Part shown: in pieces, positions 5,946-51,188 of the stretch
How positions within the stretch are numbered: position 1 is the first letter of the stretch
Layout of the letters: the number at the start of each line of letters is the position of its first letter
Made by a program: the position numbers and the translations under genes
The notes under the pieces: generated by a model
Told to the model about the DNA's origin: nothing
What the model saw: the letters and a program-made list of their open reading frames with translations, nothing else
Databases searched by the model: none
Assembly: GCA_030647105.1 (NCBI GenBank)
Contig: JAUSJW010000100.1
Span: forward strand, 1 to 53,925
Source: Nanobdellota archaeon
GTDB lineage: Archaea; Nanobdellota; Nanobdellia; Woesearchaeales; WJIZ01
Length of the DNA stretch: 53,925 nt
Direction of reading: 5' to 3'

Positions 5946-6001
5946 CTTCCTTCCGGTTGCTAGAGATTATATAAATTTTACTATTTTATAGTAATTAATA
6001 T

Positions 6002-12000: not shown

Positions 12001-14869
12001 TATTTTCTTCCTCGGACTCTACAAGCTCAAAGTAGCTGTCTTCTGCGGAGAAGCTGTAATTCGCGTACGCGATTTTCGCGGTGACGATATTCTCCGATCC
12101 TGCGCCGAGCTTGCCTTCCGAAAGGAAAAAGGTGTCATCGTACGTATCGCGCTCCGCCGCCAAGTCATACAGCGCGCAGCATCCCGCTCCGCCGTAGCAC
12201 ACGCGCTCCTGTGTTTCCAACGCGCGCACCGTGTAGATCGCGCAGAGATTCTTCGGATCCGCTTCCCATCCCAACTGGCTGCCTTCCACAGTGAGGTCCA
12301 CCACGCCGCCGCTATCGACAACCCCATCGTCATCAGGGTCCCAGGCGGTTCCGGCATGGTAATCCAAATCAAGGTCAATAGCTCTTTCTCCGGGCGATAA
12401 GGATTTGCGAGTATCCGTCTTCACGCGCGATAAAGGCCGGGAAGCGCTGTCAAAGACCACCTGAGTTCCAGCCAGAACACGCGCATGGGCTCCGGAGCTG
12501 AGCGTTCCAGTAAGCGTGAGCGAAGATAGGCTCCGCTGACCAGGGAAGAGTTCATAGGACGCGGGGAAAGCGAACGTCTGCCCGACAGGCACCGTGAAGG
12601 TCGCGTTTTCCCGCACGAGGAATCCAGTCAATGGCGCGTCCTGGAGGAAGAAGAAGGCACCAGCGAAGAGGAGCAAGAGAGCCATCGCGACCGCCACGCC
12701 TTGCCGGGGCCTGAACACGCGGACAGGTTTGAGGCGCGCGAGTTGTGTTGCCTCGTGCAGGAGGGCTTCTACTCTTCCGCGTGACACCGCTCCCCCGCTA
12801 TACGCCAATTCCGTAAGCTGAGAGAAGAAAGGCTCGACAGACTTCTGGAGGAAGTCGTGAAGTTTCTTTTCGCGGGCCGCCTTGCCGAGCTCTTCGTAGG
12901 TCGCCTCGTATTCAATGCTAAGGTGGTGTTTGAGCCAGTCCTTCATAATGGTGTCAAGCTGTTTGAGCGCGAGCGTGGGCTCTTCCCTCGCTATCTGGCT
13001 CGAAAGCAAAGAGAGCCGAGCCGTGATATCGGGCGCCTGTCGCGTCAGGACATTCAAAGCGGGATGCGCGGACGAGGGGAACAGGCGCGAGAGCAGGAGC
13101 CGGAGTTTGCTCGGCTTGCCCTGCTTGGCTGCCAGCCTGCGATGGATAAAGGCGCGAAGAGGCTGTAAGGCCGCTGAAATCCGCTGCCTGAACGGTTTCT
13201 TGTGATGCAGCCAGCCCAAAACGCCCAGGAACAAGAGGGCGGAAAGCGACGAGATAATAAGGCCCCATTCCACTCCGCCGTACAGTTCAGGTGGCGCGAG
13301 CTTGGGCACTTCTGTCGGCGCGACAATCTCCTCTTGTCTGCATGATCTGCACGGCCCGCCGCAGTCCACGCCTTGTTCGCAGAGGGTAGTGCCGTTCTCC
13401 GCGCGTGGACAATTCATAACGGCGTCGAAGCAGGTCGCGCAGGAGTTCTCGCATGAGCCGCCGCAGTCCACGCCTTGCTCATCATAGTCCTGTCTCCCGT
13501 CAAAGCAGTAATCTCCGGCGTTGCACTGGCGAGTAAGATTGGGCGTGTATCTCCCCGTCTTGCATTCGTTCAAATCTGAGCAGTTTCTCGCGGCGTATCC
13601 CGAGCCGCACAATCCCCAGCCAGAGCAGAACCATTTCTCCTCGCAGCGTTTCGAGCTTCCTCCGCCGCCTCCGCCGCCTCCGCCGCCCACGACAGCTGCG
13701 GGAGTGGACGCTTCAGGGAGGTTGTTCACATTCAGGTCGAAGATAATCGCATCAGAAGCGGCAATCGTATCGTTCGCTTCTATGCTCACACGCTGCCTTC
13801 CAAACGCGTTGGCCTCGACCGCGAAGCTGATAAAGTGGGAAGAGGGGCATACTCCTTGCCGCGGATCGCGGTTATTCTCAATAGAGACAGAGACAAAGGG
13901 ATTCGCGGAGATAGATCTAAGCTCAAATTTGAGGCAGTCACCATTCGAGTCGTTGAAGAAGTCGTCGAGGTCGTACGCGTTGATAATGTTATGGTCTTCA
14001 TCCCAAGTGTAGTTGAGCGTTCCAGCAGACGTAACATAGAACGGCTTGCTGTTGGTGGGAAGAATAGTGATATTGATAAGTTGTGAATCGGTATTGTTGG
14101 CGCACGTGTTGTTGTCCTGCGCGGTAATGTTAAGGAGGTGGTAACCGACATGTTTTAGGTCGGGAGTAATTGTGAGCAGGCCTGAGCTCGCGTTGAGAGT
14201 GACATACGAACCGCCGACTGGGGAGAGCGACGCGTAAGCGTCCGTCTGATTGAAGGCGATGCTGAAGTTTATCGCGTCTCCCTCAGGGTCGGACGCGTTG
14301 ATGTCGATGACGAGCGTCGCGTTGCGGTCCACGCTGAAGCTCGCCGACACGTTCAGTACCGGAGGCTCGTTCGCCGCGCAATCGGAAGTGATGTTAAGCG
14401 GCAGGACAGAGGAGGTAACCTGATTACTGCATCCCGATCCGTCGCTTATGTTGATAGCGATATGGTAGTATCCTGCCGAGCTAACAGAAGGCGTGAACGT
14501 GACGCCGCCTGAAGACGAGATGTTGAACAAGGTAGTGTTGTCGATGTAAGTGAAACTCGTACTGGGATTGGCGTCGGACGCCGAGACTGTGCAGTTGTAG
14601 AGCACTGTCGCGTTCGCTGTGGACGAGCAGTTGGACACGTTGAGTGATGGCGCGGTGTTGACACAGAAGGTCACGCTTCCAGAGCCGGAGTTCATGCCCG
14701 TCACAGCGATAACCGCGGGCTCTGGAGATTTGAGGAAGACAAGCGCGCTCCAAACAGAGACCGCGAGCAAACAGAGCACCATCAAAGCGAGCGTCGTGTT
14801 CGAAAGCGCCGCGGCTCGCGCGCGCGTCATCATGCCGGCAAGGCCCCAATTATTTCTTCTGTTGCTCAT
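6002..14869 (-). CDS. giant (2,955 aa) multi-TM surface protein with cadherin/Ig-like repeat array, Cys-rich module and dense N-glycosylation sequons
   Basis: Uninterrupted ORF. N-terminal hydrophobic anchor, two internal hydrophobic helices, and a C-terminal TM plus RRRKV. About ten repeats of ~90-115 aa joined by N-x-x-(A/P)-P-x-F linkers. Every other-frame ORF inside it is Arg/Gly/Pro-rich junk. Confidence 0.85.
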   Translation of the reverse strand: MSNRRNNWGLAGMMTRARAAALSNTTLALMVLCLLAVSVWSALVFLKSPEPAVIAVTGMNSGSGSVTFCVNTAPSLNVSNCSSTANATVLYNCTVSASDANPSTSFTYIDNTTLFNISSSGGVTFTPSVSSAGYYHIAINISDGSGCSNQVTSSVLPLNITSDCAANEPPVLNVSASFSVDRNATLVIDINASDPEGDAINFSIAFNQTDAYASLSPVGGSYVTLNASSGLLTITPDLKHVGYHLLNITAQDNNTCANNTDSQLINITILPTNSKPFYVTSAGTLNYTWDEDHNIINAYDLDDFFNDSNGDCLKFELRSISANPFVSVSIENNRDPRQGVCPSSHFISFAVEANAFGRQRVSIEANDTIAASDAIIFDLNVNNLPEASTPAAVVGGGGGGGGGGSSKRCEEKWFCSGWGLCGSGYAARNCSDLNECKTGRYTPNLTRQCNAGDYCFDGRQDYDEQGVDCGGSCENSCATCFDAVMNCPRAENGTTLCEQGVDCGGPCRSCRQEEIVAPTEVPKLAPPELYGGVEWGLIISSLSALLFLGVLGWLHHKKPFRQRISAALQPLRAFIHRRLAAKQGKPSKLRLLLSRLFPSSAHPALNVLTRQAPDITARLSLLSSQIAREEPTLALKQLDTIMKDWLKHHLSIEYEATYEELGKAAREKKLHDFLQKSVEPFFSQLTELAYSGGAVSRGRVEALLHEATQLARLKPVRVFRPRQGVAVAMALLLLFAGAFFFLQDAPLTGFLVRENATFTVPVGQTFAFPASYELFPGQRSLSSLTLTGTLSSGAHARVLAGTQVVFDSASRPLSRVKTDTRKSLSPGERAIDLDLDYHAGTAWDPDDDGVVDSGGVVDLTVEGSQLGWEADPKNLCAIYTVRALETQERVCYGGAGCCALYDLAAERDTYDDTFFLSEGKLGAGSENIVTAKIAYANYSFSAEDSYFELVESEEENISVVFEPSERRFVDVCDETCRLSTPVSGTLSIEVQNGTFVLESVSYGSSLVFNRAPAFRDLPNLSLDYGAVTQLRLGDFATDADGDTLSYSWYSVDGIDVEIVDGVALVSAQPGFSGTAFTFFTASDTEQSSLSNLISIQVKQPKDVNVQGAARVGQPVRWTKIASVRGATVTLDHVPLNFTVRELTASGVRELEKTDYALKEGPSRVVAGAARAPAELQVVTASPEVEVEYYTESPRSTEEQLSESTKRVTISSELHYLNITAFTELPEVPVDAIHLYHVVGGAREEATFDAFDRNNNGLIDSIEWQVPHLSNETYEVELSILNVQSYPTVGGEWEVRFTTLGAADLSIAASNGTTYGSSGDLMPETLTCGDAEIPFLQSGNLATVSNYSCNTTATWTAQVLTAGSHHQRFTFGSAEAYAHNFASVNSSGANLSVYDSQDVDGLAKYSVTNLTFYANYTNGTAISGICTIQFNFTGAYEGAANMTFSEAGGLYSYNRTIPYKGRSYFNVLCANATSPTLNITDDLLINNSAPAFNKTGNNLEPLVCTEDLDCKYNISHYSSDVNINDGLAFDYTAGSIQNFTSHPDCSNCWRFDFTNGNFTVRVTTSNFSNSGPFRPLVTVSDTSGDSDSANIDLTITAVNDLPVFSTPAGTSISSATTETLYGYQLAASDEETAAASLVYNFSIVSCQQNYLSDCAALTLAINSTTGAFNFTPLNNDAGNYTLNLTVRDTDNGMGYKLANFTVTDINNAPSFDATCSNSTAIEDIRHFCIINGTDSELDTLTLSSNLSWFNISRTTSRSFLANFTPSNAQVGNYSVRLNLSDGLLHALTTINITVNNTNDAPVFTTLASQTAIIGRNSTFTVIAADDDFSQPYDSFLNTSENLTFAVNQSFFTLTKLNATALRLNFTPVLAQAGNYTVLVNATDIALALGFTTFNLSVRTNSAPVFGLICSNFTVIQEGAQFSCLFNASDAENDAVNFTSNTSWFNLSAAGNASFFPNDDRVGDHRVLVTATDFWGDATTYVYNVTVNNTPEAPTFTLVPNLTATRGTPFTYNLSRNVTDDDFNLPTPDTLNFSDNTTLFNITSAGFISFTPTITEVGNYTVNITVNDSNGLAVYAALRVEVLNINTAPTFVYLCENERTAWEDILFTCTINATDAESDAVNFTANASWFTIKNMSIRGAVANFTLNYTFVGNYSINFTASDYELNTSQTINFTVNNTNDAPTLTLSDLNATEDSLFNYTVNATDEDFLVPSNDTLTYRTNSTLFTINASTGRILFTPNSTQVGNHTVQFNVTDLANVTTNKTVNFQVQFFNDVPSVSVPNLEAEALQTLLYDVNATDEEDGEPNLTYGFNLSAPFAINRSTGMMNVTVNSSFVGLHVVNLSVNDSGGKSASVLFNLTILSVNSPPNLTQLTPYGTPLSNTTVFAWANLSSFTLNRTSINVSENATVPFNVSVNDSNGDNVTYRWYIDGVLNSTSNTTSALTYVPDFLDAGLHNVTVIISDPRNANATFTWNITVADSNRAPRFGFVDHDATDFSSGTANGTNTSDTGILLGANGSVFNNRGEYLSPALDMGGTATIAYNPIGLVNLSWDAITPTGTAAVLQTRTSEDSTTWNNWSILLLNRSYLNSSGERVVSENTTYLQYRVILNTTNTNLTPNVSSVVIRHRIPNIELDEGDSLPNWIDLDDYFSDLDTDDTLLFSVSGVTNVALSISNSTHIVSLTTTSTSAGTETAVFNATDGTDSVLSAPVTIEVTDVETTSDTDTVTVTRTRTTFKTRLRTVTEPRYLEIVAPRHVTGFSEDTVVAPIILTNNAESVLSGIKLVANTSDPTVIAWFERSAFDTLVPKQTEETRLFIKWSGTVREFDVIVSATSTDPVFTDKAIISLTGTERVAENRTQIDDHINFVRDLLQMNPECLELSELMTEAQSDIQAGQYDRARERLSFIIEGCRYLLSVPKEIDQFEPIKQRESSLYQVLSGLLLTLLFIAFLIIVWLSRRRKV
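7424..10417 (-). repeat. in-frame tandem array of ~10 cadherin-like domains (aa 1485-2482 of the giant ORF)
   Basis: Recurring linkers: NNSAPAF, VNDLPVF, INNAPSF, TNDAPVF, TNSAPVF, PEAPTF, NTAPTF, TNDAPTL, FNDVPSV, NSPPNL, SNRAPRF. Recurring core: F(N/T)I...G.(I/L).FTP...VGNYTV. Confidence 0.75.
13658..13687 (-). repeat. (GGCGGCGGA)x3 + GGA microsatellite encoding Gly10 linker
   Basis: Plus strand reads tcc tcc gcc gcc tcc gcc gcc tcc gcc gcc. This encodes aa 395-404 of the giant ORF. Confidence 0.9.
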
Positions 14870-39462: not shown

Positions 39463-40953
39463 TCACGCTCGCTTCGTTTTTCTCTTGGCCGCGGCGATAG
39501 CGTACTGCACGGGATTCTTGAATCTCTTTTCTTCGGGCGTTGGCGTGACGCCGACCGCCTGATAATAATCGCTTGTGTAATTAGGCGGGAGAATCTTTTC
39601 TTTGTTTCGTTTGTGATAGCTTAAATGACTGGTGATAATGTTCTGCCTCAGCGATTCGGGATGCTGCTTGTTCCATTCTTCGAAGCGCTTTTCTACCATT
39701 TCGTAGTCCCAGCCAACAGAGACGAGGAAATTAGTGAGGATGAAAAGCGCTCTTTTCTTTCCGTCTTTCAGGGGACCGAGCATGGTTTTGATTGCGGGTG
39801 GGAAGAAGGATTCGGGAATCGCGTTCTCGACCTTTTGGAACTCGCGCTCTTCCCTCACTTCTTTTTTGGCTTCCGCGGCCCTCATCGCCTCGTGCAAAAG
39901 CCTTGATGCTTCCCCCGACTTCGCTTTCTTGCGGTCGATGAAGGTGAAGCGGGTGAGTTTCAAGGTTTCAGGATTCGCCAGCTTCTTTTCGAAGTCGAGA
40001 ACTTTCTCGGGGTTGAAGGGTGTGCTGACAAGCCCTGATTTTTCGTGGAAGGAGTAGGGCATGCGGTAGAGGTGTCTTGTCGCTATCAGAATGGTGTCGA
40101 CTTCAATAATTGAGAGCGGGTTGAAGTGCGTCACATAGTCATTTGAGCCGCAGTCGCAAAGCGATTTCTTCATAGGGATTTTCTCCATGAGATTGCCGCA
40201 GCGCTCGCACTTGAGAAAAGGTCTGTCTTCGATTCTCGTCGTATTCCCGCACTTTCTGCACTGGAACTCGAAGAGATTCACATCAGTCTGTTTCTTTTGG
40301 ATTTCTTTCCCGCACTTCGCGCAGATTTTGAGCGTAAGTTCTTCGAAGCTCTTGCCAGTCATCTCCTTGAGGCGGTCGGGCGAGGCCTTGAACTGCTTTT
40401 TCAGCCCTTTGCCGAAGATGATGCTGTTTCCTTCCACTGGGATGTACTTTTCAGCGATGTACGTTAAGAGGTAAAGCGCGATGGCTCTCGGCGCTTCGGG
40501 AAAGAGGTCTTTTGTTTCCTGAGCATTGAATGTTGTTGGAAAGGATTCGAACGGGATACCGATGTGAAATCCCTTGTTTCCGGAGAACTTGACAGAGACT
40601 GAGCCGATGCCGAAGTCCTTCAAAGCCTGAATGATGAGCCAGCACGTGATTTTAGAGAGCTTCCAATCGGGAATGTCGATGTCGATGACCAAATCCCAGC
40701 CTTTCCTGATTCGCTTCTTGTCGGCTTCTTTCATTTCGGGCCCTAATTGAAGAGGATTCGTCCAGAGCTCTTCTGAGCCGTGGAAGCTGGTGGCGCCCTG
40801 CTTAATGAGGTCGAGAATCTCTTCTGGAAACTTGAGGACGTCTGGGCGCTTGCCGAAGCTGTCGCCATAGCGCACGCCGATTTCCCGGTTCCTCGCGTGC
40901 TCGATGAGGGCTTGCTTGATGCCCTCCTTCGCGTAGAACTTAAACTGAGCCAT
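39463..40953 (-). CDS. DNA primase, AEP PriS catalytic core with Zn-ribbon insert and PriL-like C-terminal helical domain (single chain)
   Basis: WDLVIDIDIPD (DxD), SGNKGFHIGIP, RHLYRMPYSFHEKSGL. Cys pairs CAKC/CRKC/CERC/CDC. C-terminal FFPPAIKTML...RALFILTNFLVSVGW. Confidence 0.85.
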   Translation of the reverse strand: MAQFKFYAKEGIKQALIEHARNREIGVRYGDSFGKRPDVLKFPEEILDLIKQGATSFHGSEELWTNPLQLGPEMKEADKKRIRKGWDLVIDIDIPDWKLSKITCWLIIQALKDFGIGSVSVKFSGNKGFHIGIPFESFPTTFNAQETKDLFPEAPRAIALYLLTYIAEKYIPVEGNSIIFGKGLKKQFKASPDRLKEMTGKSFEELTLKICAKCGKEIQKKQTDVNLFEFQCRKCGNTTRIEDRPFLKCERCGNLMEKIPMKKSLCDCGSNDYVTHFNPLSIIEVDTILIATRHLYRMPYSFHEKSGLVSTPFNPEKVLDFEKKLANPETLKLTRFTFIDRKKAKSGEASRLLHEAMRAAEAKKEVREEREFQKVENAIPESFFPPAIKTMLGPLKDGKKRALFILTNFLVSVGWDYEMVEKRFEEWNKQHPESLRQNIITSHLSYHKRNKEKILPPNYTSDYYQAVGVTPTPEEKRFKNPVQYAIAAAKRKTKRA

Positions 40954-42060: not shown

Positions 42061-42636
42061 TTACTTCAGAACGCGTACACGTATAATCAGGCACTGGCCG
42101 AGCAAGAGGCTTTTCGGCATCGGCATCCTAAGCAAAGGAATCCAGCCGCGGTTCACGGTAACGCGTTCAACCTTGAAGAAATCCGGAACCTGCCACATAA
42201 AGAAGGGGTTGACATGTGAATTCCCGTCGTGCTCGTGCTTGTTGAATTCGATGAATTTGCCGGTGAGGAGGTACTTGAGCCGGTTGAAAAGGTTGCCGAT
42301 GTTGGGCGTTGAGAAGACGTAGACGCCGTCTTTCTTGAGGATGCGCCGCACTTCGCGCAGATAGAGGTATTTATTTTCGAGGTGCTCGATGACCTCTGTC
42401 GAGATGACTGCGTCGTACGTGTCAGACTTGAACGGGAGCGGGTTATTGAAATTCGCGATAGTCACTTTCCCGTCGAAGCGGTCCACGAGGTCTGCGTACT
42501 CGATATGCTTGAAACCCGTCGCGCGCAGCATCTTCACAACTTGCCCCGCTCCGCAGCCCAGGTCCACGATTCTCGCGTCTTTGGGTAGCCCTTTCAGGAG
42601 CGCGACCGCGGTCTCGTAGGTTTGTGGGTAGGCCAT
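42061..42636 (-). CDS. class I SAM-dependent methyltransferase
   Basis: Motif I IVDLGCGAGQ, DAVISTEVIEHL, GVYVFSTPN. Own TATA at 42661-42668. Confidence 0.85.
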   Translation of the reverse strand: MAYPQTYETAVALLKGLPKDARIVDLGCGAGQVVKMLRATGFKHIEYADLVDRFDGKVTIANFNNPLPFKSDTYDAVISTEVIEHLENKYLYLREVRRILKKDGVYVFSTPNIGNLFNRLKYLLTGKFIEFNKHEHDGNSHVNPFFMWQVPDFFKVERVTVNRGWIPLLRMPMPKSLLLGQCLIIRVRVLK

Positions 42637-42694
42637 TTCTTAGCTGAAAGTCGGGAACGGTTATATATTGCTTTCTCTTGATAGGGGTGCACTA

Positions 42695-43486
42695 CTACTT
42701 TACTGCCTTGATAGTCCAGCCGTTATACCGGGACAATACATTCATAACAGCGGCGAATGCCTTATTGATCTTATAGAACTTTTTTCCTAAGCTTGTGCCA
42801 TATCCTCGGTGGTTAAACGCCCTAGCGTTTGAGAACTCCGTGAAATACGCGAGAATCTCCTTTTTCCTGAACATCCGTACGATAGGGACATTGCCCTCCA
42901 CTTCCATATAGCGGTGCGCGAGCTGATTGAGATTTTCCTTTGGGAAATGACCTTGGATGAAGCCCCAGAGCGGGAACCAGAGATAATATTTCCAATCCTT
43001 GCCGTAGAACCACAAGATGGCTTTTCCACCTGGCTTGAGGACTCTATGGATTTCGCTCACGGCTTTTTTCATATCCGGAACGTGGTGGATGACCCCCATG
43101 CTGTACACCACGTCAAAGGTATCGTCTTTGAACGGCAGCTTTTCCGCGTTGGCGACTTGCAAATTCGCCTTGAGTTTTGCATCTTCGAATCGTTTCTTCG
43201 TGGTCTTGATTCCCGCTTTAGTAAGGTCGATTCCGTAACATTCCGCTCCGTGCTTAGCGAACTGCAGCAGGTCAGTTCCGACTCCGACGCCAATCTCTAG
43301 GACTTTTTTGCCTGAATGTTTTCTGAATTCCGCGGCAGTGTAGAGATAGGGAAAATAGGTGAGATATCTCTTGCGCACGATTTCTTCCCAATACGCGTCT
43401 GTCCCGTACTCTTTCTTGGAATACCAGCGCTGAGGCAGACGGGTTTCCCAATACGATTTAGAAACTTTGAGAATCCCCCTTGCCAT
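42695..43486 (-). CDS. class I SAM-dependent methyltransferase
   Basis: VLEIGVGVGTD, GIDLT, FDVVYSMGVIHHV, LKPGGKAIL. The ORF extends to 43501, but Met6 (43486) is 23 nt from the TATA at 43509-43516. Confidence 0.85.
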   Translation of the reverse strand: MARGILKVSKSYWETRLPQRWYSKKEYGTDAYWEEIVRKRYLTYFPYLYTAAEFRKHSGKKVLEIGVGVGTDLLQFAKHGAECYGIDLTKAGIKTTKKRFEDAKLKANLQVANAEKLPFKDDTFDVVYSMGVIHHVPDMKKAVSEIHRVLKPGGKAILWFYGKDWKYYLWFPLWGFIQGHFPKENLNQLAHRYMEVEGNVPIVRMFRKKEILAYFTEFSNARAFNHRGYGTSLGKKFYKINKAFAAVMNVLSRYNGWTIKAVK

Positions 43487-43507
43487 TTTCCCTGAAACCA
43501 TTCTCCC

Positions 43508-44305
43508 CTATAAAAAGACTCCCTTTGCGTCCTGAAGCGTGTGGATATGCTTCTCTTTCTCTGAACTCAAATGCCCGTTCAGCAATCCCCTGGAAGCGAG
43601 GCTCGGGAACACGTCTTTTTCGAGACTAGCTCCTGGCTGCTCGAGAATCGCTGGAGAAGCCATGAAGATGGGTGAGAAGACCAGGTAGATGTCGGATTGC
43701 TTGGGCTTTTGGGTGAACGCGAGAATCTTGTTACCCTCGACCTTGAGCGTGCCTTTCTCAGAGGGCTGCGAGGAAGTGGTCATGAGCAGCGTCGCGGCTG
43801 CGGAATTCTTGACCTGGTCTTTCCAGAGTTCCTCGAGGTTCACTTTGCTGAAGAGGAGGTCGCCGTAGACGACGAGGAACTCGGTCTCCACTTTGCCTTT
43901 GACAAGCCTTAAACTGTCAGCAGAGCCCTCTGACGTTTTCTCCTCAACATAGCTAACACGGACCCCGTAAAGCGAGCCGTCCCTCACGACGTGGAAGATG
44001 GCGCTGAGCGCGTTCTTGCGAGCGACGATAAAGATGTTCTTGAAGCCGGACTCGCGCAATTTTTCGAGCGCGTGCACAACGACTTCCTTGCCCTTCACCT
44101 TCGCAGTCATACGGTAGCCGTCGCCCAATCTGATGTGCTCTTCCGGTCCGCCCGCAAGGATTACTGCAGTTCTATTCGCGCCCAGAGCGGCCGAGACCAG
44201 ATGCTCGAAGGCCTGGCTCCGGTTGCGGATATGGAGATTGTCGACTATGGAATCGACTCCTTTGAGCAGGCCCTTGTCGATAGTGATAGAGATTTTCTCC
44301 TTCAT
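43508..44305 (-). CDS. ribbon-helix-helix domain fused to a sugar-nucleotidyltransferase-like (GT-A/NTP_transferase) domain
   Basis: N-terminal KISITIDKGLLKGVDSIV...RNRSQAFEHLVSAAL (RHH). Then AVILAGGPEEHIRLGDGYRM...GKEVVVHAL, VVYGDLLF, with an atypical nucleotide-binding signature. Confidence 0.7.
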   Translation of the reverse strand: MKEKISITIDKGLLKGVDSIVDNLHIRNRSQAFEHLVSAALGANRTAVILAGGPEEHIRLGDGYRMTAKVKGKEVVVHALEKLRESGFKNIFIVARKNALSAIFHVVRDGSLYGVRVSYVEEKTSEGSADSLRLVKGKVETEFLVVYGDLLFSKVNLEELWKDQVKNSAAATLLMTTSSQPSEKGTLKVEGNKILAFTQKPKQSDIYLVFSPIFMASPAILEQPGASLEKDVFPSLASRGLLNGHLSSEKEKHIHTLQDAKGVFL

Positions 44306-44320
44306 GAGCCCGAAAAGAGG

Positions 44321-44346
44321 TATGCGCTATATAAAATTATCGCATA
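44321..44346. promoter_or_regulatory. inverted repeat TATGCG-N14-CGCATA bracketing the TATA box (44328-44335) of the RHH-NTP gene
   Basis: Read directly. TATATAAA is 23 nt from ATG 44305. Confidence 0.45.
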
Positions 44347-44365
44347 AAGTAGGATAAGGGTAAGA

Positions 44366-44373
44366 TATTTAAA
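44366..44373 (+). promoter_or_regulatory. TATA box for the ugd operon
   Basis: TATTTAAA, 26 nt upstream of ATG 44399. Confidence 0.6.
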
Positions 44374-44398
44374 GCGCGTGCCCTTTTTCAGTCCTACA

Positions 44399-45691
44399 AT
44401 GAACATCGCAGTCATCGGTTCGGGTTACGTCGGTCTCGTAGCGGGAGCCTGCCTCGCGGAGATGGGAAACGAAGTCATGCTCGTTGACATCGACCAGAAA
44501 AAGGTCGACCTACTGAACTCGGGCAAGGTTCCGATTTATGAGCCAGGGCTGGAAGAGACACTCAAGAAAAATAAGAAAAAAATCACGTTCACAACCGACA
44601 TTAAGGCAGCCATCGAGAAAAGTCTCGCTATCTTTATCGCCGTCGGCACTCCACCGGGGAAGAACCATGAAGCTGACTTATCCGCGGTCAAGGCTGTCGC
44701 GAAGACCATTGGCCAGCACATGAACGGCTATAAAGTTATTATCGACAAGAGCACCGTGCCGGTCGGAACCGCTGACCTGGTCGCGAAGATAATCAAGGAA
44801 AATCAAACAACGCCCGTTGAGTTTGACGTCGTTTCCAACCCTGAATTCCTGCGGGAGGGGGAGGCAATCAACGACTTCCTCGTGCCCGACAGAATTGTTG
44901 TCGGATGCTCCACCGAGAAAGCGAAGAAAACGCTCGAAGATTTGTACAAGGGCATCGCGCGGACGGACAGGCCGATTCTCTTCTGCGACGTGCGGAGCGC
45001 GGAGATGATAAAATACGCGAGCAACGCGATGCTGGCGACGAGAATCAGCTTCATGAACGAAATCGCGCAGCTCTGCGAGAAGCTCGGCGCGGACGTCAAG
45101 ATGGTCGCGAAGGGCATGGGCCTGGATTCCAGAATCGGCCCGCGCTTCCTGCAGGCCGGCGTCGGATACGGCGGAAGCTGCTTTCCAAAAGACGTGCAAG
45201 CGTTGTTGCAGACGATGCGGCAAAATGGTGTGCCAGGGACAATTCTGCAAGCGGTAGAAGCCGTCAACGCGGAGCAGAAGCAGAGCTTGCTTCCCAAAAT
45301 CAAGAACCTCGTTCCTCAGCTCAAGGGCAAGCGTGTCGCGGTGTGGGGGCTCGCGTTCAAGCCCAAGACAGACGATATGCGCGAAGCGCCTTCTCTTGTT
45401 GTCATCGAACAGCTCCTTAAAGAGGGAGCGTGTGTTGTCGCGTATGACCCCGAAGCGGAGGCAGTCGCGAAGAAGCTGCTCCCTTCCATCGAATACGCTC
45501 AGGATCCGTATGAAACGCTCAAAGGGGCTGACTGCCTCGTGATTGTCACCGAGTGGAACGCGTTTAGGGATTTAGACAAGCAGAAGATGAAACGGCTCAT
45601 GAACTCGCCAGTCATCGTCGACGGCAGAAACGTCTATGAGCCGGGCGAGATGCGCGAGCACGGATTTTCCTACATCGGGGTGGGCAGATGA
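44399..45691 (+). CDS. ugd: UDP-glucose (or UDP-GlcNAc) 6-dehydrogenase
   Basis: MNIAVIGSGYVGLVAGACLA, NPEFLREG, catalytic GYGGSCFPKD, GLAFKPKTDDMREAP. The ORF track begins at GTG 44378; the ATG at 44399 fits the homologous N-terminus. Confidence 0.92.
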   Translation: MNIAVIGSGYVGLVAGACLAEMGNEVMLVDIDQKKVDLLNSGKVPIYEPGLEETLKKNKKKITFTTDIKAAIEKSLAIFIAVGTPPGKNHEADLSAVKAVAKTIGQHMNGYKVIIDKSTVPVGTADLVAKIIKENQTTPVEFDVVSNPEFLREGEAINDFLVPDRIVVGCSTEKAKKTLEDLYKGIARTDRPILFCDVRSAEMIKYASNAMLATRISFMNEIAQLCEKLGADVKMVAKGMGLDSRIGPRFLQAGVGYGGSCFPKDVQALLQTMRQNGVPGTILQAVEAVNAEQKQSLLPKIKNLVPQLKGKRVAVWGLAFKPKTDDMREAPSLVVIEQLLKEGACVVAYDPEAEAVAKKLLPSIEYAQDPYETLKGADCLVIVTEWNAFRDLDKQKMKRLMNSPVIVDGRNVYEPGEMREHGFSYIGVGR

Positions 45692-46413
45692 AAGCGATTT
45701 TACTCTGCGCTGGCTACGCGACACGGCTGTATCCCTTAACGGAGAAAACGCCCAAGCCGCTGCTTCCTGTTGGCGGCAAGCCGATTCTCGAGCACATTCT
45801 CGAAAAGGTCTTCAAAATTCCCGGAGTGACAGAAGCAGTCATCGTGACCAACAGCAAGTTCTTTCCGCACTTCCAGGAATGGAAGAAGGGAAAACCCTGG
45901 CGCCTCACGATTCTCAATGATGGCACGCACTCCAATGAGGACAGAAAAGGCGCATTGGGCGATTTGCAGTTCGCTCTCGACTCTTTGAAAATCGCCGACG
46001 ACTGCCTGGTCATCGCCGGCGACAATTTGTTTTCATTTTCTTTGCAGAGCATGGTCGACTGTTCCAAGCAGAAGCGCGCCGCCGTGGTCACACTGTACGA
46101 TGTTCAGGAGTTGGAACTGGCGAAGCTCTACGGCATCGTCAAGATTGACACTTCCGGAAAGATTATCGATTTCCACGAGAAGCCTGAACACCCGACATCC
46201 ACACTGAGCAGCACCGGCGTCTATTTGTATCCGCACGCCTCACTCGCGAAACTCAAAACGTTCCTTGCCGAAGGTGGCAAGCACGACAAGTCTGGAGATT
46301 TCCTGGAGTGGCTGTATACGCGCGAACCTGTGTATGGCCTCGTGACGACCGAGCGCTGGTACGATATCGGGTCCTTAGAGCAGCTTGAAGAGGCGCGGAG
46401 GGCGTTCCCATGA
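45688..46413 (+). CDS. sugar-1-phosphate nucleotidylyltransferase
   Basis: [43 protein letters not shown]. 4-nt overlaps on both sides. Confidence 0.88.
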
Positions 46414-47333
46414 AAACCGCGCTTGTCACAGGTGGAGCTGGATTTTTGGGCAGCCATCTCTGCGACGCGCTTATCAAGGACCATCGGGTCATCTGCGTTG
46501 ATAACCTCTTCACGGGCTCCACCAAGAACGTCGAGCATCTCTTGAAACATCCTCAGTTCAAACTCATCAAGCACGACATCATCCAGCCGCTGGCCATTGA
46601 CGAGAAGATTGATTTCATCTACAACCTTGCGTGCCCCGCGTCGCCGGTGCACTACCAGTTCAACGCTATTAGGACAATTAAAGCGAATGTCCTGGGAACG
46701 ATGAACATGCTCGGGCTGGCAAAGAAGCATGGCGCCCGCATCCTGCAGGCGAGCACTTCCGAAGTGTATGGCGACCCGCTGGAGCATCCGCAGAAGGAAA
46801 CGTACCGAGGCAACGTCAATCCCATTGGAATTCGGGCGTGCTACGACGAAGGCAAGCGATGCGCCGAGACCTTGATGTTTGACTATCACCGCCAAAACGG
46901 TGTTGACATCCGAGTGATTCGCATCTTCAACACCTACGGGCCGCGGATGGCGGCGAACGATGGAAGAGTTGTCTCCAACTTTATTGTACAGGCGCTCAAG
47001 GGCGAGGACATCACAATCTATGGTGACGGTACGCAGACCCGAAGCTTCTGCTATGTCTCGGATTTGATTGACGGCATCGTGAAGATGATGCATCAGGGCT
47101 ACATCGGACCGGTCAATTTAGGAAATCAGGAAGAATATACGGTTCTGGAGCTCGCTCAAAAGATTATCGCGCTTTCCGGAAGCAAGTCCAAGGTCGTCCA
47201 CAAGCCGCTGCCGCTCGACGACCCTACAAAACGCAGACCGGACATCACGCTCGCGAAAAAGCATCTCGGATGGAAGCCGACGACTCAGGTCGATGAGGGC
47301 CTGAAGAAGACGATTGTGTGGTTCAAAGAGTAG
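46410..47333 (+). CDS. UDP-glucuronate decarboxylase (UDP-xylose synthase-like extended SDR)
   Basis: [37 protein letters not shown] (YxxxK), IFNTYGPRM. Confidence 0.9.
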
Positions 47334-47392: not shown

Positions 47393-48334
47393 ATGAAAGT
47401 CGGCGTCATTGGATCGGGGGACTGGGGTAAAAACCACCTTAGAATCTACTCAGGGCTCGACTGCGAGCTTGCGGGGCTTGCGGACATCAATCCGGAGCGC
47501 AGAAAGCTCGCTGACCACTATGGCATCCCGTTCTTCACTGATTACAAGGAGATGCTTAAGAAGGTGGACGCTGTCTCGGTTGTCGTTCCTACTGACCTGC
47601 ATTACCGCGTTGTGAAAGACTGTTTGAACGCTGGGGTGCACGTATTGGTTGAGAAGCCCATCACCAACGACGCGGCTTCCGCGAAAGAACTGATTGAGCT
47701 CGCGAAGAAAAAGAAGCTCGTCCTCGCCGTTGGCTACCTGTTCCGGTTCAACGCCGCGGTCAAGAAAGTGAAAGAGGAGCTCAAGACTATCGGCGATATT
47801 CAGTATATCACCGGCCGCTACATCCATTCCAACAAGCCGCCGAGAAAGGACTCCGGAGTCATCTTCAACTTCGGCGTGCACCTCGTGGACATTCTGAATT
47901 ACATCTTGACAGACAGGCCAAAAAAGGTCTTTTGCACGAGCACGTACTCTCTTTCCAAAGAGCGGGAAGACGCCGCGGTCATTACGTTAGATTACGGAGC
48001 CTACTTCGCTTCGCTTGAGATGAGTTGGCTGCACCCCCTAAAGAAGCGCGACTTCTGGATTGTTGGCAGGAAGGCGAAGCTCTACGCGGATTTGTTTGAG
48101 CAGATTGTTATCCGCTACCCAATTGAAGTCGGCGCGGACAAGACGACCGCCTCACCTGAAGTCAACCTCGAAGTCAACAAAAACGAGCCGCTGCAAGCTG
48201 AATTGCAGGCGTTCCTAAACGCGATTAAGAAGGGCGGCAACGGTGTCTTCGAGGGCAATGAAGAGCTGTTCACAACCCGGATTTGCGAGCTTGCCGAGAA
48301 GTCGAGCAAGGAGCACAAGGAGATAGCGATATGA
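47393..48334 (+). CDS. Gfo/Idh/MocA-family sugar-nucleotide oxidoreductase (WbpB-like)
   Basis: VGVIGSGDWGKNH, HVLVEKP, GYLFRFN. Confidence 0.85.
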   Translation: MKVGVIGSGDWGKNHLRIYSGLDCELAGLADINPERRKLADHYGIPFFTDYKEMLKKVDAVSVVVPTDLHYRVVKDCLNAGVHVLVEKPITNDAASAKELIELAKKKKLVLAVGYLFRFNAAVKKVKEELKTIGDIQYITGRYIHSNKPPRKDSGVIFNFGVHLVDILNYILTDRPKKVFCTSTYSLSKEREDAAVITLDYGAYFASLEMSWLHPLKKRDFWIVGRKAKLYADLFEQIVIRYPIEVGADKTTASPEVNLEVNKNEPLQAELQAFLNAIKKGGNGVFEGNEELFTTRICELAEKSSKEHKEIAI

Positions 48335-48906
48335 AACTCGGCAAGCGCTGTGTCGTTGACGAGCTTTGCTCTATTGATGTCCAGCCTAAGGGCGGCGACC
48401 ATAAGGAAACTATTCTTGGAGATGACTCCCATATTCGTTCCCATACGGTCCTCTACGCCGGCAATGTTATCGGCAAGCGCTTCCAGACCGGGCATGGTGC
48501 CTTGATTCGGGAAGAAAACACCATTGGCGATGACGTCAGCGTGGGAAGCCACAGTGTGGTCGAACACCACGTGAAAATTGGCAAGGGGGTCCGGATTCAC
48601 TCGCAAGCTTTTGTTCCCGAGTTCAGCGTCTTGAAAGAGGGGTGCTGGATTGGCCCGAATGTGGTCTTAACCAACGCTCTGTATCCTAAGTCTAAAGACG
48701 CCAAGAAAAATTTGAAAGGCGTTGTCGTTGAGGAGAACGCTAAAATCGGCGCGAACTCCACAGTTCTGCCCGGTGTTGTCATCGGCAAGAATTCACTCGT
48801 AGGAGCGGGAAGTGTAGTTGTGAGAGACGTACCTCCCAACACGGTGGTTGTCGGCAGCCCTGCCCGCGTCATCAAAAAGATTTCGGAGCTGAAGGCGTAT
48901 GGATAA
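48331..48906 (+). CDS. left-handed beta-helix (hexapeptide) N-acetyltransferase (WbpD-like)
   Basis: Hexapeptide repeats IGDDVSVGSHSVVEHHVKIGKGVRI and IGANSTVLPGVVIGKNSLVGAGSVV. The ATG at 48331 overlaps the upstream stop (ATGA). Confidence 0.85.
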   Translation: MKLGKRCVVDELCSIDVQPKGGDHKETILGDDSHIRSHTVLYAGNVIGKRFQTGHGALIREENTIGDDVSVGSHSVVEHHVKIGKGVRIHSQAFVPEFSVLKEGCWIGPNVVLTNALYPKSKDAKKNLKGVVVEENAKIGANSTVLPGVVIGKNSLVGAGSVVVRDVPPNTVVVGSPARVIKKISELKAYG

Positions 48907-50008
48907 GCTACCCCTTGTTGATTTGCAGGCGCAGTACCGCGGCATCAAGAAAGAAGTGGACGCAGCTATCCAGAATATTCTTGATACTACTCAGTTTATC
49001 GGCGGTGCCGCGCTTACTCAATTTGAGCAGCGCTTCGCCCAGTATTGCGGCAAGAAAAAATCAGTGGGGGTAAGCAACGGCACTTCCGCGCTCTACGTCG
49101 CGCTCAAGATGCTGGGTGTCGGAAAAGGCGATGAGGTCATCACGGTTCCCAATACCTTTATCGCCACCAGCGAAGTCATCAACGAGCTGGGCGCCTCGGT
49201 GAAGTTTGTTGATGTGGAAGCGGACACCGCGTTGATGAATCCTGAGCTCCTCAAAAAGGCGATTACCCCAAAAACCAAAGTCATCCTCCCTGTGCACCTC
49301 TACGGGCAGCCGTGCGACATGAAGGCTATTAGCGATATAGCCACGGACAAGAACGTTGCGATTGTCGAGGACGCCGCCCAGGCGCATGGAGCGCGGCAGA
49401 ACGGCAAGCGGGTTCCGGTGACGGACATCGGCTGCTTCAGTTTTTATCCGGGGAAAAATCTCGGGGCTTACGGAGACGCGGGAGCGATTGTGTGCGGGAA
49501 TGAGGAGTTCGCTTTGAAGTGCGAGCGATTCGTCAACCACGGCAGAAATCCCGGAGAAAAATACCTGCATCACACGTTAGGCTCCAATTACCGTATGGAC
49601 ACCCTGCAGGCGGCAGTGCTCGACGTCAAATTGAAGCATCTCGACTCGTGGACGCAGAAACGAAGGCAAACTGCGAAGTGGTACGACGGCCTCCTGAAAG
49701 GCGTCAAGACGATTACCGAGCGCAAAGGAAACGAGTCAGTCTACCATCTGTATGTTATCCAATCCGAAAATAGGCAGGGCCTTCTGGAACACCTCCACAA
49801 GCAGGGCATCCAGGCAGGCGTGCACTATCCAGTTCCCTTGCATATGCAGCCGAGCTACGCCTACCTCGGCCTGAAGAATGGAAGCTTCCCTGTGGCCGAG
49901 AAGCTGTGCTCCACCTGTGTTTCCCTGCCTCTTTATCCCGAGCTCACCCGTGAACAGGTGGAGTTTGTCGCGGAGCAGGTGATGGCATTTGAGAGTTCTC
50001 GTCCTTAG
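48899..50008 (+). CDS. DegT/DnrJ/EryC1/StrS-family PLP aminotransferase (WbpE-like)
   Basis: FIGGAALTQFEQRFA, GVSNGTSAL, EDAAQAHG, SFYPGKNLG (PLP Lys), YHLYVI. Confidence 0.92.
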   Translation: MDKLPLVDLQAQYRGIKKEVDAAIQNILDTTQFIGGAALTQFEQRFAQYCGKKKSVGVSNGTSALYVALKMLGVGKGDEVITVPNTFIATSEVINELGASVKFVDVEADTALMNPELLKKAITPKTKVILPVHLYGQPCDMKAISDIATDKNVAIVEDAAQAHGARQNGKRVPVTDIGCFSFYPGKNLGAYGDAGAIVCGNEEFALKCERFVNHGRNPGEKYLHHTLGSNYRMDTLQAAVLDVKLKHLDSWTQKRRQTAKWYDGLLKGVKTITERKGNESVYHLYVIQSENRQGLLEHLHKQGIQAGVHYPVPLHMQPSYAYLGLKNGSFPVAEKLCSTCVSLPLYPELTREQVEFVAEQVMAFESSRP

Positions 50009-51188
50009 CCCCTCTTACCCGAGGAGCGAAACGGACACTAGAGTCGCGTTCGTGCGCGCTTTTGTCAAGGAGCTGACTAAAGAGAAGAACATCGACGTCG
50101 AGATTGTTACGAGCTCAGCGCCGGATAGCGCCCCTCTTTTTCAGGTGATGGACAAGGCGAAGATTTACCGCTTCAATTACTTCTTTCCGCGGTCGATGCA
50201 GCGATTGACCTATACTCCTTCCGGCGGCATGCTCGAGAGCTTCCGAACGAGTGTTCTCGCGAAACTGCAGGCGCCGCTTTTTCTCAAGTTCTTCTTCTGG
50301 AAAGCGCTGAAGCATGCTAAGCGCTGCGACGTGATTCATGCGCAATGGCTGCTCTCGGGATTTGTCGGCGTGTTCCTGAAGAAGCTGTACAAGAAGCCGC
50401 TAATTTGCGAGGTGCGCGGGGCTGACTTGCGGAGCATGCCGGCGTGGTTCATCCGCTTTACCTTGAAGCATGCTGACCATGTGATATCGTGGACACCTGA
50501 GATGACTGATTTGCTGCACAAGCACGGGAGAACGCGCAACATTCACGACATCAAAGGCATGATTGATTTCGAGAAGCTTGAGAGCGCTTCAGGCGTTGAG
50601 ACGTTCAAGAAAGAAGTGAATCCCGGCGGAAAATTCCTCGTGACATTCCTCGGCCGGATGGTGTACATGAAGAATCCTCTTGCCTTCATCCGCGCGATTC
50701 CCTATGTTGTCGCGAAAGACAAGAACGTGCAGTTCATCATGGCGGGCGACGGAGCATTGGTTCCGGACGCCTGGAAACTCGCGGAGAAGCTCGGAGTAAA
50801 GGAGCGCGTCACGATTCTCGGACCCCGGAGTGACGTCAACGCGATTCTGCGCAACACGGATGTGTTTGTCGGTTTGAGTCCCCTCTGCCACACCTATTCC
50901 GCCACAATCATGGAAGCAATGTATCTCGGAGTGCCGTGCGTCTTGGACACGCCTCCTTACACGCGCGAGGCGTTCACGCATAAGAAGTATGCGTATCTTG
51001 TGCCGTCTGACGACCCGAAGAAGCTGGCTGAGGCCATCCTACTCGTGAAGAACGATAAGAAGCTGCGAGAAACGCTTTCTCAGAACGGACCCACATTGGT
51101 CAAATCGCTAGGATTTGAGAAGAAGGAAATTATCCGGAAGACGGTTGAGCTGTATAAGAAGGCCATTACAGAAGCGCGTCAATCTTAA
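49989..51188 (+). CDS. family 4 (GT-B) glycosyltransferase
   Basis: MRVLVLSPSYP, FLGRMVYMKNP, E-x7-E region TIMEAMYLGVPCV. TTG start overlapping the end of the aminotransferase gene. Confidence 0.82.
   Translation: MRVLVLSPSYPRSETDTRVAFVRAFVKELTKEKNIDVEIVTSSAPDSAPLFQVMDKAKIYRFNYFFPRSMQRLTYTPSGGMLESFRTSVLAKLQAPLFLKFFFWKALKHAKRCDVIHAQWLLSGFVGVFLKKLYKKPLICEVRGADLRSMPAWFIRFTLKHADHVISWTPEMTDLLHKHGRTRNIHDIKGMIDFEKLESASGVETFKKEVNPGGKFLVTFLGRMVYMKNPLAFIRAIPYVVAKDKNVQFIMAGDGALVPDAWKLAEKLGVKERVTILGPRSDVNAILRNTDVFVGLSPLCHTYSATIMEAMYLGVPCVLDTPPYTREAFTHKKYAYLVPSDDPKKLAEAILLVKNDKKLRETLSQNGPTLVKSLGFEKKEIIRKTVELYKKAITEARQS

Follow-up and report, generated by a model that had tools for sequence, protein, structure and literature searches.

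Is a protein that carries a DNA-binding domain in front of a sugar-nucleotidyltransferase fold an enzyme, a sensor, or both? The question is raised by a gene in a 53,925-nucleotide stretch of Nanobdellota DNA (contig JAUSJW010000100.1, hereafter the window), which encodes a ribbon-helix-helix (RHH) domain fused to a nucleotidyltransferase (NT) fold and lies divergently from an operon that begins with ugd, the gene for UDP-glucose 6-dehydrogenase. A preliminary description of this DNA, made from the sequence alone, had proposed a regulator of that operon linked to nucleoside diphosphate (NDP) sugars, in which the enzyme fold acts as a sensor or as part of a bifunctional enzyme/repressor. We conclude, with a probability of about 0.7, that the gene encodes a one-component, autoregulated, ligand-responsive transcription factor derived from RHH-enzyme fusions. 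The protein has the fused architecture and has lost the catalytic signature of its NT fold, its divergent synteny with ugd is conserved, and the intervening DNA contains conserved repeats that take a form like the NikR half-site in two clades of the family. As yet uncharacterised, the module of regulator, operator and operon at this locus is conserved in DPANN archaea. The gene and its parts are the following.

43508..44305, minus strand: RHH-NT regulator gene, 265 aa plus stop, ATG start (open reading frame and domain matches)
44180..44305, minus strand: NikR-like RHH domain, aa 1-42 (NikR profile match, RHH_1 matches, invariant columns, secondary structure)
43511..44173, minus strand: sugar-1-phosphate nucleotidyltransferase-fold domain, aa 45-265, proposed ligand sensor (PF00483, Foldseek, model confidence)
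44108..44158, minus strand: degenerate phosphate-binding loop, aa 50-66, reading L-A-G-G-P-E-E-H-I-R-L-G-D-G-Y-R-M in place of GGxGTRLxPLTxxxPKP (alignments to RmlA/VTC1, to the neighbouring canonical nucleotidyltransferase NT2 and to the homolog P0274)

An RHH domain fused to a nucleotidyltransferase fold

The preliminary description had read residues 1 to about 42 as an RHH and the remaining ~220 as an NT of the RmlA/GlmU type, and both assignments held. For the N-terminus, we aligned the first 44-47 residues of 21 diverse family members into a profile, which matched the RHH of E. coli NikR (E=6e-9) and that of P. horikoshii NikR (E=1e-6). Pfam RHH_1 (PF01402) was matched individually by 19 of the 21 members. 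On these two grounds we take the RHH-NT architecture to be real and, judged by its sequence profile, the N-terminus is a member of the RHH superfamily. When the window protein was searched against solved structures, its residues 3-46 matched E. coli NikR, and the NCBIfam NikR models gave weak matches confined to aa 3-45 (13-17 bits against cut-offs of 83-175). In the family alignment the RHH beta-strand is K-I-S-I-T-I, with K4, S6 and T8 invariant, and an invariant R-N-R-S turn precedes helix 2. In the AlphaFold2 (AF2) monomer model, for which 24 homologs were used, the N-terminus is extended and leads into helices at 11-23 and 29-40. A linker of about four residues leads from here to the NT domain.

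Residues 47-250 correspond to PF00483, NTP_transferase (E=5.8e-14, 52.7 bits against a cut-off of 21.2), with NTP_transf_3 also matched, and residues 45-240 match RmlA, GDP-mannose pyrophosphorylases and GlmU among the solved structures. The predicted local distance difference test (pLDDT) score is 77-94 over aa 41-200, which is most of the NT domain. Foldseek superposes the model on RmlA, VTC1, GMPPB, MurU and a cyanobacterial UDP-glucose pyrophosphorylase with E values of ~1e-16, TM scores of 0.70-0.74 and a probability of 1.00. As modelled, this part of the protein is a Rossmann-like alpha/beta NT fold.

More than 600 close homologs share 59-69% identity with the window protein over 94-99% of its length. 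They are 253-302 aa long, mostly ~265, and are annotated as 'NDP-sugar pyrophosphorylase family protein' or 'hypothetical protein'. The close homologs are metagenomic and, where named, come from Woesearchaeota/Nanoarchaeota, to which the family is confined as far as names show; for the distant members the cluster look-up returned a single taxon name, 'Nanoarchaeota'. An exhaustive HMMER search of 50%-identity representatives collected 404 clusters at E<=1e-10. Almost every cluster match listed aligns from residue 1, so that the RHH-NT fusion itself is kept down to ~28% identity. One homolog, P0022 (302 aa, 52% identity), is exceptional in having an internal tandem duplication of ~37 residues spanning EEK..GTADSL..VVYGDIIFSKINI of the NT domain.

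Loss of the catalytic signature in the window clade

Two clades of the family are distinguished here, of which clade 1 contains the window protein. Where the neighbouring canonical enzyme NT2 keeps the usual nucleotide-binding signature, the loop of the window protein reads LAGGPEEHIRLGDGYRM. This difference had been pointed out in the preliminary description, and it was found again in three concordant alignments, namely the HMMER family profile against solved enzymes, MAFFT with NT2, and BLASTP to the clade 2 protein P0274. An hhalign comparison of the family with the single NT2 sequence was not relied on (18% probability), though its register agreed. Motif by motif, the canonical residues and their counterparts in the window protein are as follows.

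GG-x-G-T-R-L: G52-G53-P-E-E-H58-I
Lys of P-K-P: Arg65, near-invariant, in Y-R-(P/M)-T; the residue is still positively charged but the P-K-P motif is lost
G-D (the Mg2+ Asp): retained as D149, the sole residue invariant superfamily-wide
E-K-P: Q199-K200-P; K200 is invariant in clade 1 and the preceding Glu is now Gln199
W-x-D-x-G: E251-K252-H253-I254-H255; the second metal-binding Asp is H253 and the sugar-stacking Trp is gone

The loop consensus of clade 1 is GG-x-E-E-(H/K)-(I/L), in which the catalytic Arg is replaced by His or Lys. The Lys of P-K-P contacts the leaving pyrophosphate in the canonical enzymes. At the W-x-D-x-G position the register is fixed by family members with intermediate sequences (GYWFNIHT, GQWFDIGS), which bridge the two forms. 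By the alignments, D149 and K200 are kept, and the Arg of GxGTR and the Asp of WxD are lost. None of the NCBIfam equivalog enzyme models came near its cut-off, the best being Arch_glmU with 66 bits against 292. On the other hand, several pocket motifs are near-invariant in clade 1 (TTSSKPSEKGT, FTQKPK, DIYLVFSP and SSEKExHIH), which speaks for a conserved ligand-binding or otherwise altered function and not for decay.

A sister clade that mostly keeps the signature

Searching with a distant member, P0210 (28% identical), recovered clade 2, a set of ~277-aa RHH-NT proteins from Woesearchaeota/Nanoarchaeota. These paralogs, for example P0274, P0289, P0317 and P0387, are 28-33% identical to clade 1. 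The window protein and the canonical clade 2 member P0274 align at 33% identity over their full length (BLASTP, E=1e-43) and are closer to each other than either is to NT2. Examples from clade 2 contain ILAGGKGTRLRPITYEIPKPMVPV, GGxGTRLxPxTxxxPKP, GD(E/N), EKPK and W-F-D-x-G (GQWFDTGT). The catalytic motifs were counted in 120 proteins of each clade.

RHH with GxG(T/S)R: 56/120 in clade 2, 0/120 in clade 1
RHH with GxGxK: 27/120 in clade 2, 0/120 in clade 1
WxD: retained in most of clade 2, 0 in clade 1
Signature lost: 119/120 in clade 1 (the remaining one is N-terminally truncated); in clade 2, the remainder

The preliminary description had offered a sensor or a bifunctional enzyme, and the answer differs with the clade. 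Clade 2, which mostly keeps GxGTR and WxD alongside the RHH, therefore looks like an enzyme-plus-regulator, while the window clade, with both motifs absent from 119 of 120 proteins, looks like a sensor. The genomic contexts of clade 2 vary and are not ugd-paired; they include phosphogluco/mannomutase (PGM/PMM), glycosyltransferase clusters, a SIS/GlmS-like neighbourhood and unrelated genes. From sequence comparison, the superfamily thus appears to span RHH-tagged, apparently competent nucleotidyltransferases and a derived, signature-less clade locked into divergent ugd synteny.

Divergent pairing with the ugd operon

The operon on the other side of the 93-bp intergenic region contains the following genes.

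44399..45691, plus strand: ugd, UDP-glucose 6-dehydrogenase, first gene of the divergent operon (TuaD/AglM-like, 556 and 414 bits; Pfam)
45688..46413, plus strand: canonical sugar-1-phosphate nucleotidyltransferase NT2 (PF00483, E=1e-39; G-loop, PKP and W-Y-D-I-G intact)
46410..47333, plus strand: UDP-glucuronate decarboxylase (UXS), a short-chain dehydrogenase/reductase (E=3e-118 to human UXS1 structures)

For ugd, a GTG at 44378 was considered as the start and rejected in favour of the ATG at 44399, since homologs begin M-x-I-x-V-I-G and the TATA-to-ATG spacing is constant. To see how far the arrangement extends, one genome per GTDB species was scanned, giving 80 clade 1 loci of ~12 kb from distinct species, and the proteins neighbouring the gene in the window were used as tblastn queries against them. 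The genes ugd, canonical NT and UXS were present in 71, 50 and 53 of the 80 loci, respectively. In 64 of the 71 loci with ugd, this gene is the immediate divergent neighbour, 35-400 bp away, and six more have a single intervening gene. The divergent transcription noted at the outset for the window, with its 93-bp gap, is the rule in these clade 1 loci. Of the nine loci without ugd, five extend less than 1.4 kb upstream of the gene, and two of these have essentially no upstream sequence. Across species the regulator is more conserved (54-68% identity) than the canonical NT that accompanies it (41-57%). The methyltransferase genes downstream (42061-43501) were considered as part of the system and dropped, since they are neighbours in none of the 80 loci.

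Further along the plus strand, downstream of UXS, positions 47393-51188 encode proteins that resemble an archaeal UDP-N-acetylglucosamine 3-dehydrogenase (231 bits), a hexapeptide acetyltransferase, a DegT/PseC-type aminotransferase and a GT4 glycosyltransferase. Together they look like a WbpB/WbpD/WbpE set and suggest, from sequence similarity, that 2,3-diacetamido sugar synthesis is encoded in the same cluster.

Three direct repeats between the divergent genes

The 66 divergent intergenic regions were compared side by side. They share a near-invariant block, T(T/A)TAAATATCTTACC-n-TTATCCTAC-t-TTAT-(c/g/a)-C-(g/t)-A-(t/c), made up of a TATA box and then three direct repeats whose starts are 11 and 10 bp apart. 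Across loci the array reads TATCTTAC-N3-TATCCTAC-N2-TAT(G/C)CGAT or TATACTAC and its third member occurs as TATCCGATA (18 loci), TATGCGATA (4) or TATACTAC(C/T) (17). Mean pairwise identity is 92% over repeats 1-2, 85% over repeats 1-3 and 35-36% in the spacers on either side, the proteins being 54-68% identical. The elements of the intergenic region in the window are given below.

44366..44373, plus strand: ugd TATA box, TATTTAAA, 25 nt before the ATG at 44399 (putative function, from the archaeal consensus)
44360..44367, minus strand: operator repeat 1, TATCTTAC, overlapping the ugd TATA box at its upstream edge, in the position of the TFB recognition element (BRE)
44349..44356, minus strand: operator repeat 2, TATCCTAC, 11 bp from repeat 1
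44339..44346, minus strand: operator repeat 3, TATGCGAT, 10 bp from repeat 2
44328..44336, minus strand: regulator TATA box, TTTTATATA on the minus strand, 22 nt before the ATG, after repeat 3 (putative function)
44321..44328, plus strand: inverted extra copy of repeat 3, TATGCGCT, between the regulator TATA box and ATG (pair I4, non-conserved)

The element follows the RHH-NT gene closely. With up to 3 mismatches allowed, TATCTTACC-N3-ATCCTAC lies just upstream of this gene, always in the same orientation, in 74 of the 80 loci. Other matches within the ~12-kb loci number six, all with 3 mismatches (L013, L036 and L054), and in the 54-kb window the element occurs once, with 0 matches expected by chance. 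A larger regulon marked by extra operator copies was therefore rejected for the window and the ~12-kb loci. The motif also accompanies the RHH-NT gene where ugd is separated from it or was not detected (L004, L045, L049-51, L056, L059, L063 and L068). Since it is present even where ugd is 1 kb away or undetected, the element travels with the RHH-NT gene.

The TATA box of ugd holds a constant position relative to the ATG across loci (26-29 nt), and its distance of 25 nt in the window implies a leaderless or near-leaderless transcript. A second, TTTATATA-like TATA box after repeat 3 was found in 23 of the 66 loci, the window included. The other 43 are without it, and in most of these the regulator ATG is a few to ~15 nt past repeat 3; here the palindromic TATTTAAATA is the only TATA box available, and it may fire in both directions.

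It is in the form of the operator that the preliminary description needs correction. The palindrome it had singled out, TATGCG-N14-CGCATA at 44321-44346, is present, and its arms even extend to 9 nt with 89% complementarity, but as an operator it is not conserved. Of its two arms, that at 44341-44346 alone is conserved, since it belongs to repeat 3. The other, at 44321-44326, lies between the regulator TATA box and ATG and is absent from that position in nearly all relatives; only L001 has CGCATA, at a different spacing. The palindrome was rejected accordingly, the conserved element being the three direct repeats between the two TATA boxes. The extra arm may represent a fourth site, inverted and specific to this lineage, by which autoregulation is reinforced. 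The wider proposal, an NDP-sugar-linked regulator of the divergent operon, gains strong support from the pairing with ugd, the triple repeat and the clade 2 repeats described below.

Two other features of the intergenic region were set aside. An inverted copy of the repeat core TCCTAC of 44349-44354, found at 44392-44397 (plus strand, pair I7) just before the ugd ATG, is probably due to chance and was not seen in other loci. An intergenic RNA element was also considered and gave no credible Rfam match, the sole match being a nematode snoRNA at E=0.48. In seven loci (L007, L008, L009, L015, L017, L019 and L023) the operator-to-ATG distance has grown to 200-360 bp through GC-rich, hairpin-rich inserts. 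The inserts of L009 (~960-1200) and L019 (~5690-5995) have nearly the same sequence, CAAGGGTTTCGCCCCTTGAGGACGAG.AACTTTTT.CGAAAAAGTTCCATC, and by their sequence look like a mobile element of the MITE (miniature inverted-repeat transposable element) kind at the same spot.

Similar half-sites in clade 2 and NikR

Base contacts in the NikR-DNA complex are made by every other residue of the strand, R3, T5 and T7. We set the RHH strands and the DNA sites of both clades beside those of NikR.

Clade 2: strand R-I-T-(I/L)-T in most, repeat TCATAC
E. coli NikR: strand R-V-T-I-T, half-site TCATAC
Clade 1 (window): strand K-I-S-I-T, repeat TC(C/T)TAC, one hexamer position different

The E. coli NikR operator is GTATGA-N16-TCATAC (PMC7055735). 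At seven of nine clade 2 loci examined, ATCATAC-N3-ATCATAC (up to 2 mismatches) lies at or near the promoter of the clade 2 gene or of its operon. Several of these repeats sit between TATA box and ATG, as does TTTATATACCCTTATCATACATCATCATACTTCTATG in L084. Of all the evidence, this parallel of strand and site in two clades and in NikR argues most strongly for binding of the repeats by the RHH of the protein encoded next to them.

Upstream of two clade 2 genes, at L081:5720-5830 and L083:5640-5750, we also noticed a block of ~110 bp that is ~90% identical between species and contains no called gene. As it lies beyond a TATTTAAATA box, it could be a small divergent open reading frame or a non-coding RNA.

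Proposed mechanism and alternatives

The results presented here allow us to propose how the module might work. The RHH would dimerise into a two-stranded antiparallel sheet on the repeated half-sites, as the three helically spaced repeats and the NikR-like half-sites of clade 2 indirectly suggest, and its dimers would bind the three TATCYTAC-like direct repeats, one helical turn apart, on one face of the helix. The repeats would thus be occupied between the putative divergent promoters of the regulator gene and of the ugd/NT/UDP-GlcA (UDP-glucuronate) decarboxylase operon, and this occupancy would hinder recruitment of TFB and RNA polymerase and repress both transcription units. Repression of both is proposed because repeat 1 lies at the ugd BRE and repeat 3 either abuts the regulator TATA box or covers the start region, and also because most relatives have a single palindromic TATA box, with the repeats placed between it and the regulator ATG. 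The remodelled NT pocket would bind a uridine sugar nucleotide of the pathway, namely UDP-glucose (UDP-Glc), UDP-GlcA or UDP-xylose (UDP-Xyl), without turnover. Since only about four residues link the NT domain to the RHH, ligand binding could alter DNA affinity; through this linker and the adjacent loop 52-66 the ligand would then exert feedback control on glycan precursor synthesis. As to its origin, the family would derive from RHH-nucleotidyltransferase fusions that still look catalytically competent. The sign of regulation is the least secure step of this scheme, and for sign and ligand identity together our confidence is lower than for the regulator model itself.

Several observations weigh against the regulator model or parts of it. 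The N-terminus of the window protein, taken alone, falls short of the Pfam RHH_1 cut-off (E=0.059, 13.8-18 bits against 20.5), and AF2 confidence for aa 1-42 is low (43-59), as is expected of a monomer model of an obligate dimer. The 80 loci were picked by peptide patterns of the family and represent clade 1 only. Among the informative loci, L038, L053, L060 and L070 have neither ugd nor the motif; in L038 the RHH-NT gene begins 1 bp after an unrelated gene. In the window-type layout (23 of 66 loci) the repeats are upstream of both TATA boxes, a position also used by activators in Archaea. Finally, the protein keeps D149 and K200, and both of the positions that contact phosphate are still basic (H/K58 and R65), so that it may retain residual or altered catalysis.

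The layout bears on whether the same protein, on the same operator, could activate the ugd operon instead. The array, bound just upstream of the TATA box, would then recruit TBP/TFB in the manner of Ptr2-type archaeal activators, and in layouts with the repeats downstream of TATA the protein might go on repressing its own gene. The repeats are indeed upstream of the ugd TATA box in all loci. However, repeat 1 is not placed further upstream; it abuts the TATA box and overlaps it, just where the BRE has to be contacted by TFB, and in 43 of 66 loci the repeats are placed between the only TATA box and the regulator ATG, which by its geometry is the classic position of an archaeal repressor. We consider activation unlikely, though it deserves serious weight, and regard the protein as probably a repressor. 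The persistence of catalytic residues has a different consequence, since the NT might still catalyse, perhaps with other substrates or with a metal site formed by the invariant His253 and His255, while the RHH autoregulates, much as in BirA, NadR or trifunctional PutA. Besides the retained D149, K200 and basic residues at the Arg15 and Lys25 positions, the near-invariant pocket motifs would fit such a bifunctional protein, as would the sister clade, in which the RHH is fused to NTs with the canonical catalytic signature, and the ~30 of 80 loci without a canonical NT2 beside ugd. Set against this are the two acidic residues that replace Gly-Thr in the phosphate loop, the His/Lys at the position of the catalytic Arg, the E-K-H reading of the WxD metal and sugar motif, and the best equivalog score of 66 bits against 292. 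What is more, most operons co-encode a canonical NT, and its presence in the regulated operon of the window counts toward a pseudoenzyme, as does the higher conservation of the regulator compared with that enzyme. Bifunctionality in the window clade therefore seems to us quite improbable.

A third alternative, which the public annotation as NDP-sugar pyrophosphorylase family or hypothetical protein would suggest, is a plain divergent pyrophosphorylase with a leader that does not bind DNA, the repeats being a promoter/BRE element or the site of another factor. The sub-threshold RHH_1 score of the window protein would agree with it. The N-terminal profile, however, matches the NikR RHH at E=6e-9; the strand residues K4, S6 and T8 do not vary, nor does the R-N-R-S turn; the repeats go with the RHH-NT gene and not with ugd; NikR-type half-sites recur at clade 2 promoters in unrelated contexts; and a 33-bp element at 85-92% identity far exceeds the needs of a BRE and TATA box. 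We give this explanation very little credence. As for the regulator model in its full extent, we would rate at about even odds a DPANN family of transcription factors built on the NT fold, which leads from the self-regulating active enzymes of clade 2 to a catalytically dead UDP-sugar sensor whose RHH dimers, arrayed head to tail on the three direct repeats, control UDP-GlcA/UDP-Xyl synthesis.

Relation to known systems

The protein resembles NikR in having an N-terminal RHH, for which NikR is the closest match, followed by a C-terminal domain that binds the ligand in NikR and would do so here, and the NikR half-site TCATAC is the clade 2 repeat and is close to TC(C/T)TAC of clade 1. The C-terminus of NikR, however, is an ACT-like Ni-binding tetramerisation domain with His/Cys ligands, whereas that of the window protein is an NT fold; because the ACT-like Ni domain is absent, the window protein is not a NikR. 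The operators differ as well, NikR using two inverted half-sites 16 bp apart and the window three direct repeats 10-11 bp apart, and in place of a metal the ligand here would presumably be a sugar nucleotide.

Enzyme/repressors offer another parallel. NadR contains a nucleotidyltransferase, and BirA uses its adenylate as corepressor. In trifunctional PutA an RHH is fused to enzymes and the protein is both enzyme and repressor (PMC5293562). Like the RHH-NT proteins, these three fuse a DNA-binding domain to a metabolic enzyme fold, and they regulate genes of the same pathway, as is proposed here. Their enzyme parts are unrelated in sequence and active, whereas the window clade has lost the signature, and the analogy fits clade 2 better. 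Clade 2 proteins are full-length homologs with the same architecture and ATCNTAC-type direct repeats at their own promoters; they differ in that most keep the catalytic motifs and that they are not ugd-paired.

The use of a degraded NT fold for regulation is also established. GMPPA, a pseudoenzyme of this fold, binds GDP-mannose and inhibits GMPPB (PMC11228364), and the GMPPA/GMPPB complexes 7d72 and 7d74 were among our top Foldseek matches, with eIF2B gamma a weak sequence match. GMPPA, GalF and eIF2B gamma/epsilon share with the window protein an NT fold with degraded catalytic motifs, but they act by protein-protein contacts, have no DNA-binding domain and carry a C-terminal left-handed beta-helix that the window protein does not have. 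Sensors derived from enzymes are found in other regulators, such as the ROK repressors Mlc and NagC, B. subtilis PurR (phosphoribosyltransferase fold) and SorC/DeoR-type proteins. There, as is proposed here, a fold that serves catalysis in the regulated pathway has become the part of a transcription factor that binds the effector, but the folds are other ones and the DNA-binding part is a winged or plain helix-turn-helix instead of an RHH. To our knowledge, none of these sensors has the NDP-sugar pyrophosphorylase fold and none comes from DPANN archaea.

A one-component regulator with an enzyme-derived sensor is a known principle. The preliminary description knew of no characterised example. 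Analogues of the principle exist, as listed above, and none of them has this combination of domains. A full-text literature search returned no description of the RHH-NT fusion, of this regulator or of its operator. If the model in its full extent is correct, the protein would be the first transcription factor sensing nucleotide sugars to be described from Archaea. One-component regulators would gain a new sensor fold, with the NDP-sugar pyrophosphorylase fold joining the enzyme folds that have been recruited as effector domains. Feedback would also act on the precursors of cell-surface glycans in organisms whose episymbiotic lifestyle depends on their surface.

Transcription regulation in DPANN is essentially uncharted, and here regulator, operator and target operon can be read from the sequence in at least 60 species. 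The whole system comes down to 33 bp of DNA, one 265-aa protein and a handful of UDP-sugars. The pair of clades, one apparently active and one degenerate, is a natural experiment on the passage from enzyme to pseudoenzyme sensor, and K-x-S-x-T beside TC(C/T)TAC versus R-x-T-x-T beside TCATAC is a small, readable piece of the RHH recognition code. Current annotations are probably misleading for metabolic reconstructions of these genomes.

Other features of the window and the loci

Many of the loci are labelled 'uncultured Methanosarcinales archaeon' by their assemblies. These labels are probably wrong or placeholders, since the RHH-NT gene, ugd and the operator are typical of the Woesearchaeota set. 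In the window, a DNA primase-like protein is encoded at 39463-40953 (minus strand), ~2.5 kb from the RHH-NT gene. A gene for this protein, which is ~450-496 aa long, is also found near RHH-NT in L038 (2526-3878) and in four other loci, a weak, residual synteny unrelated to the sugar operon. The largest open reading frame of the window, at 6002-14869 (minus strand), is a single one of 2955 aa.

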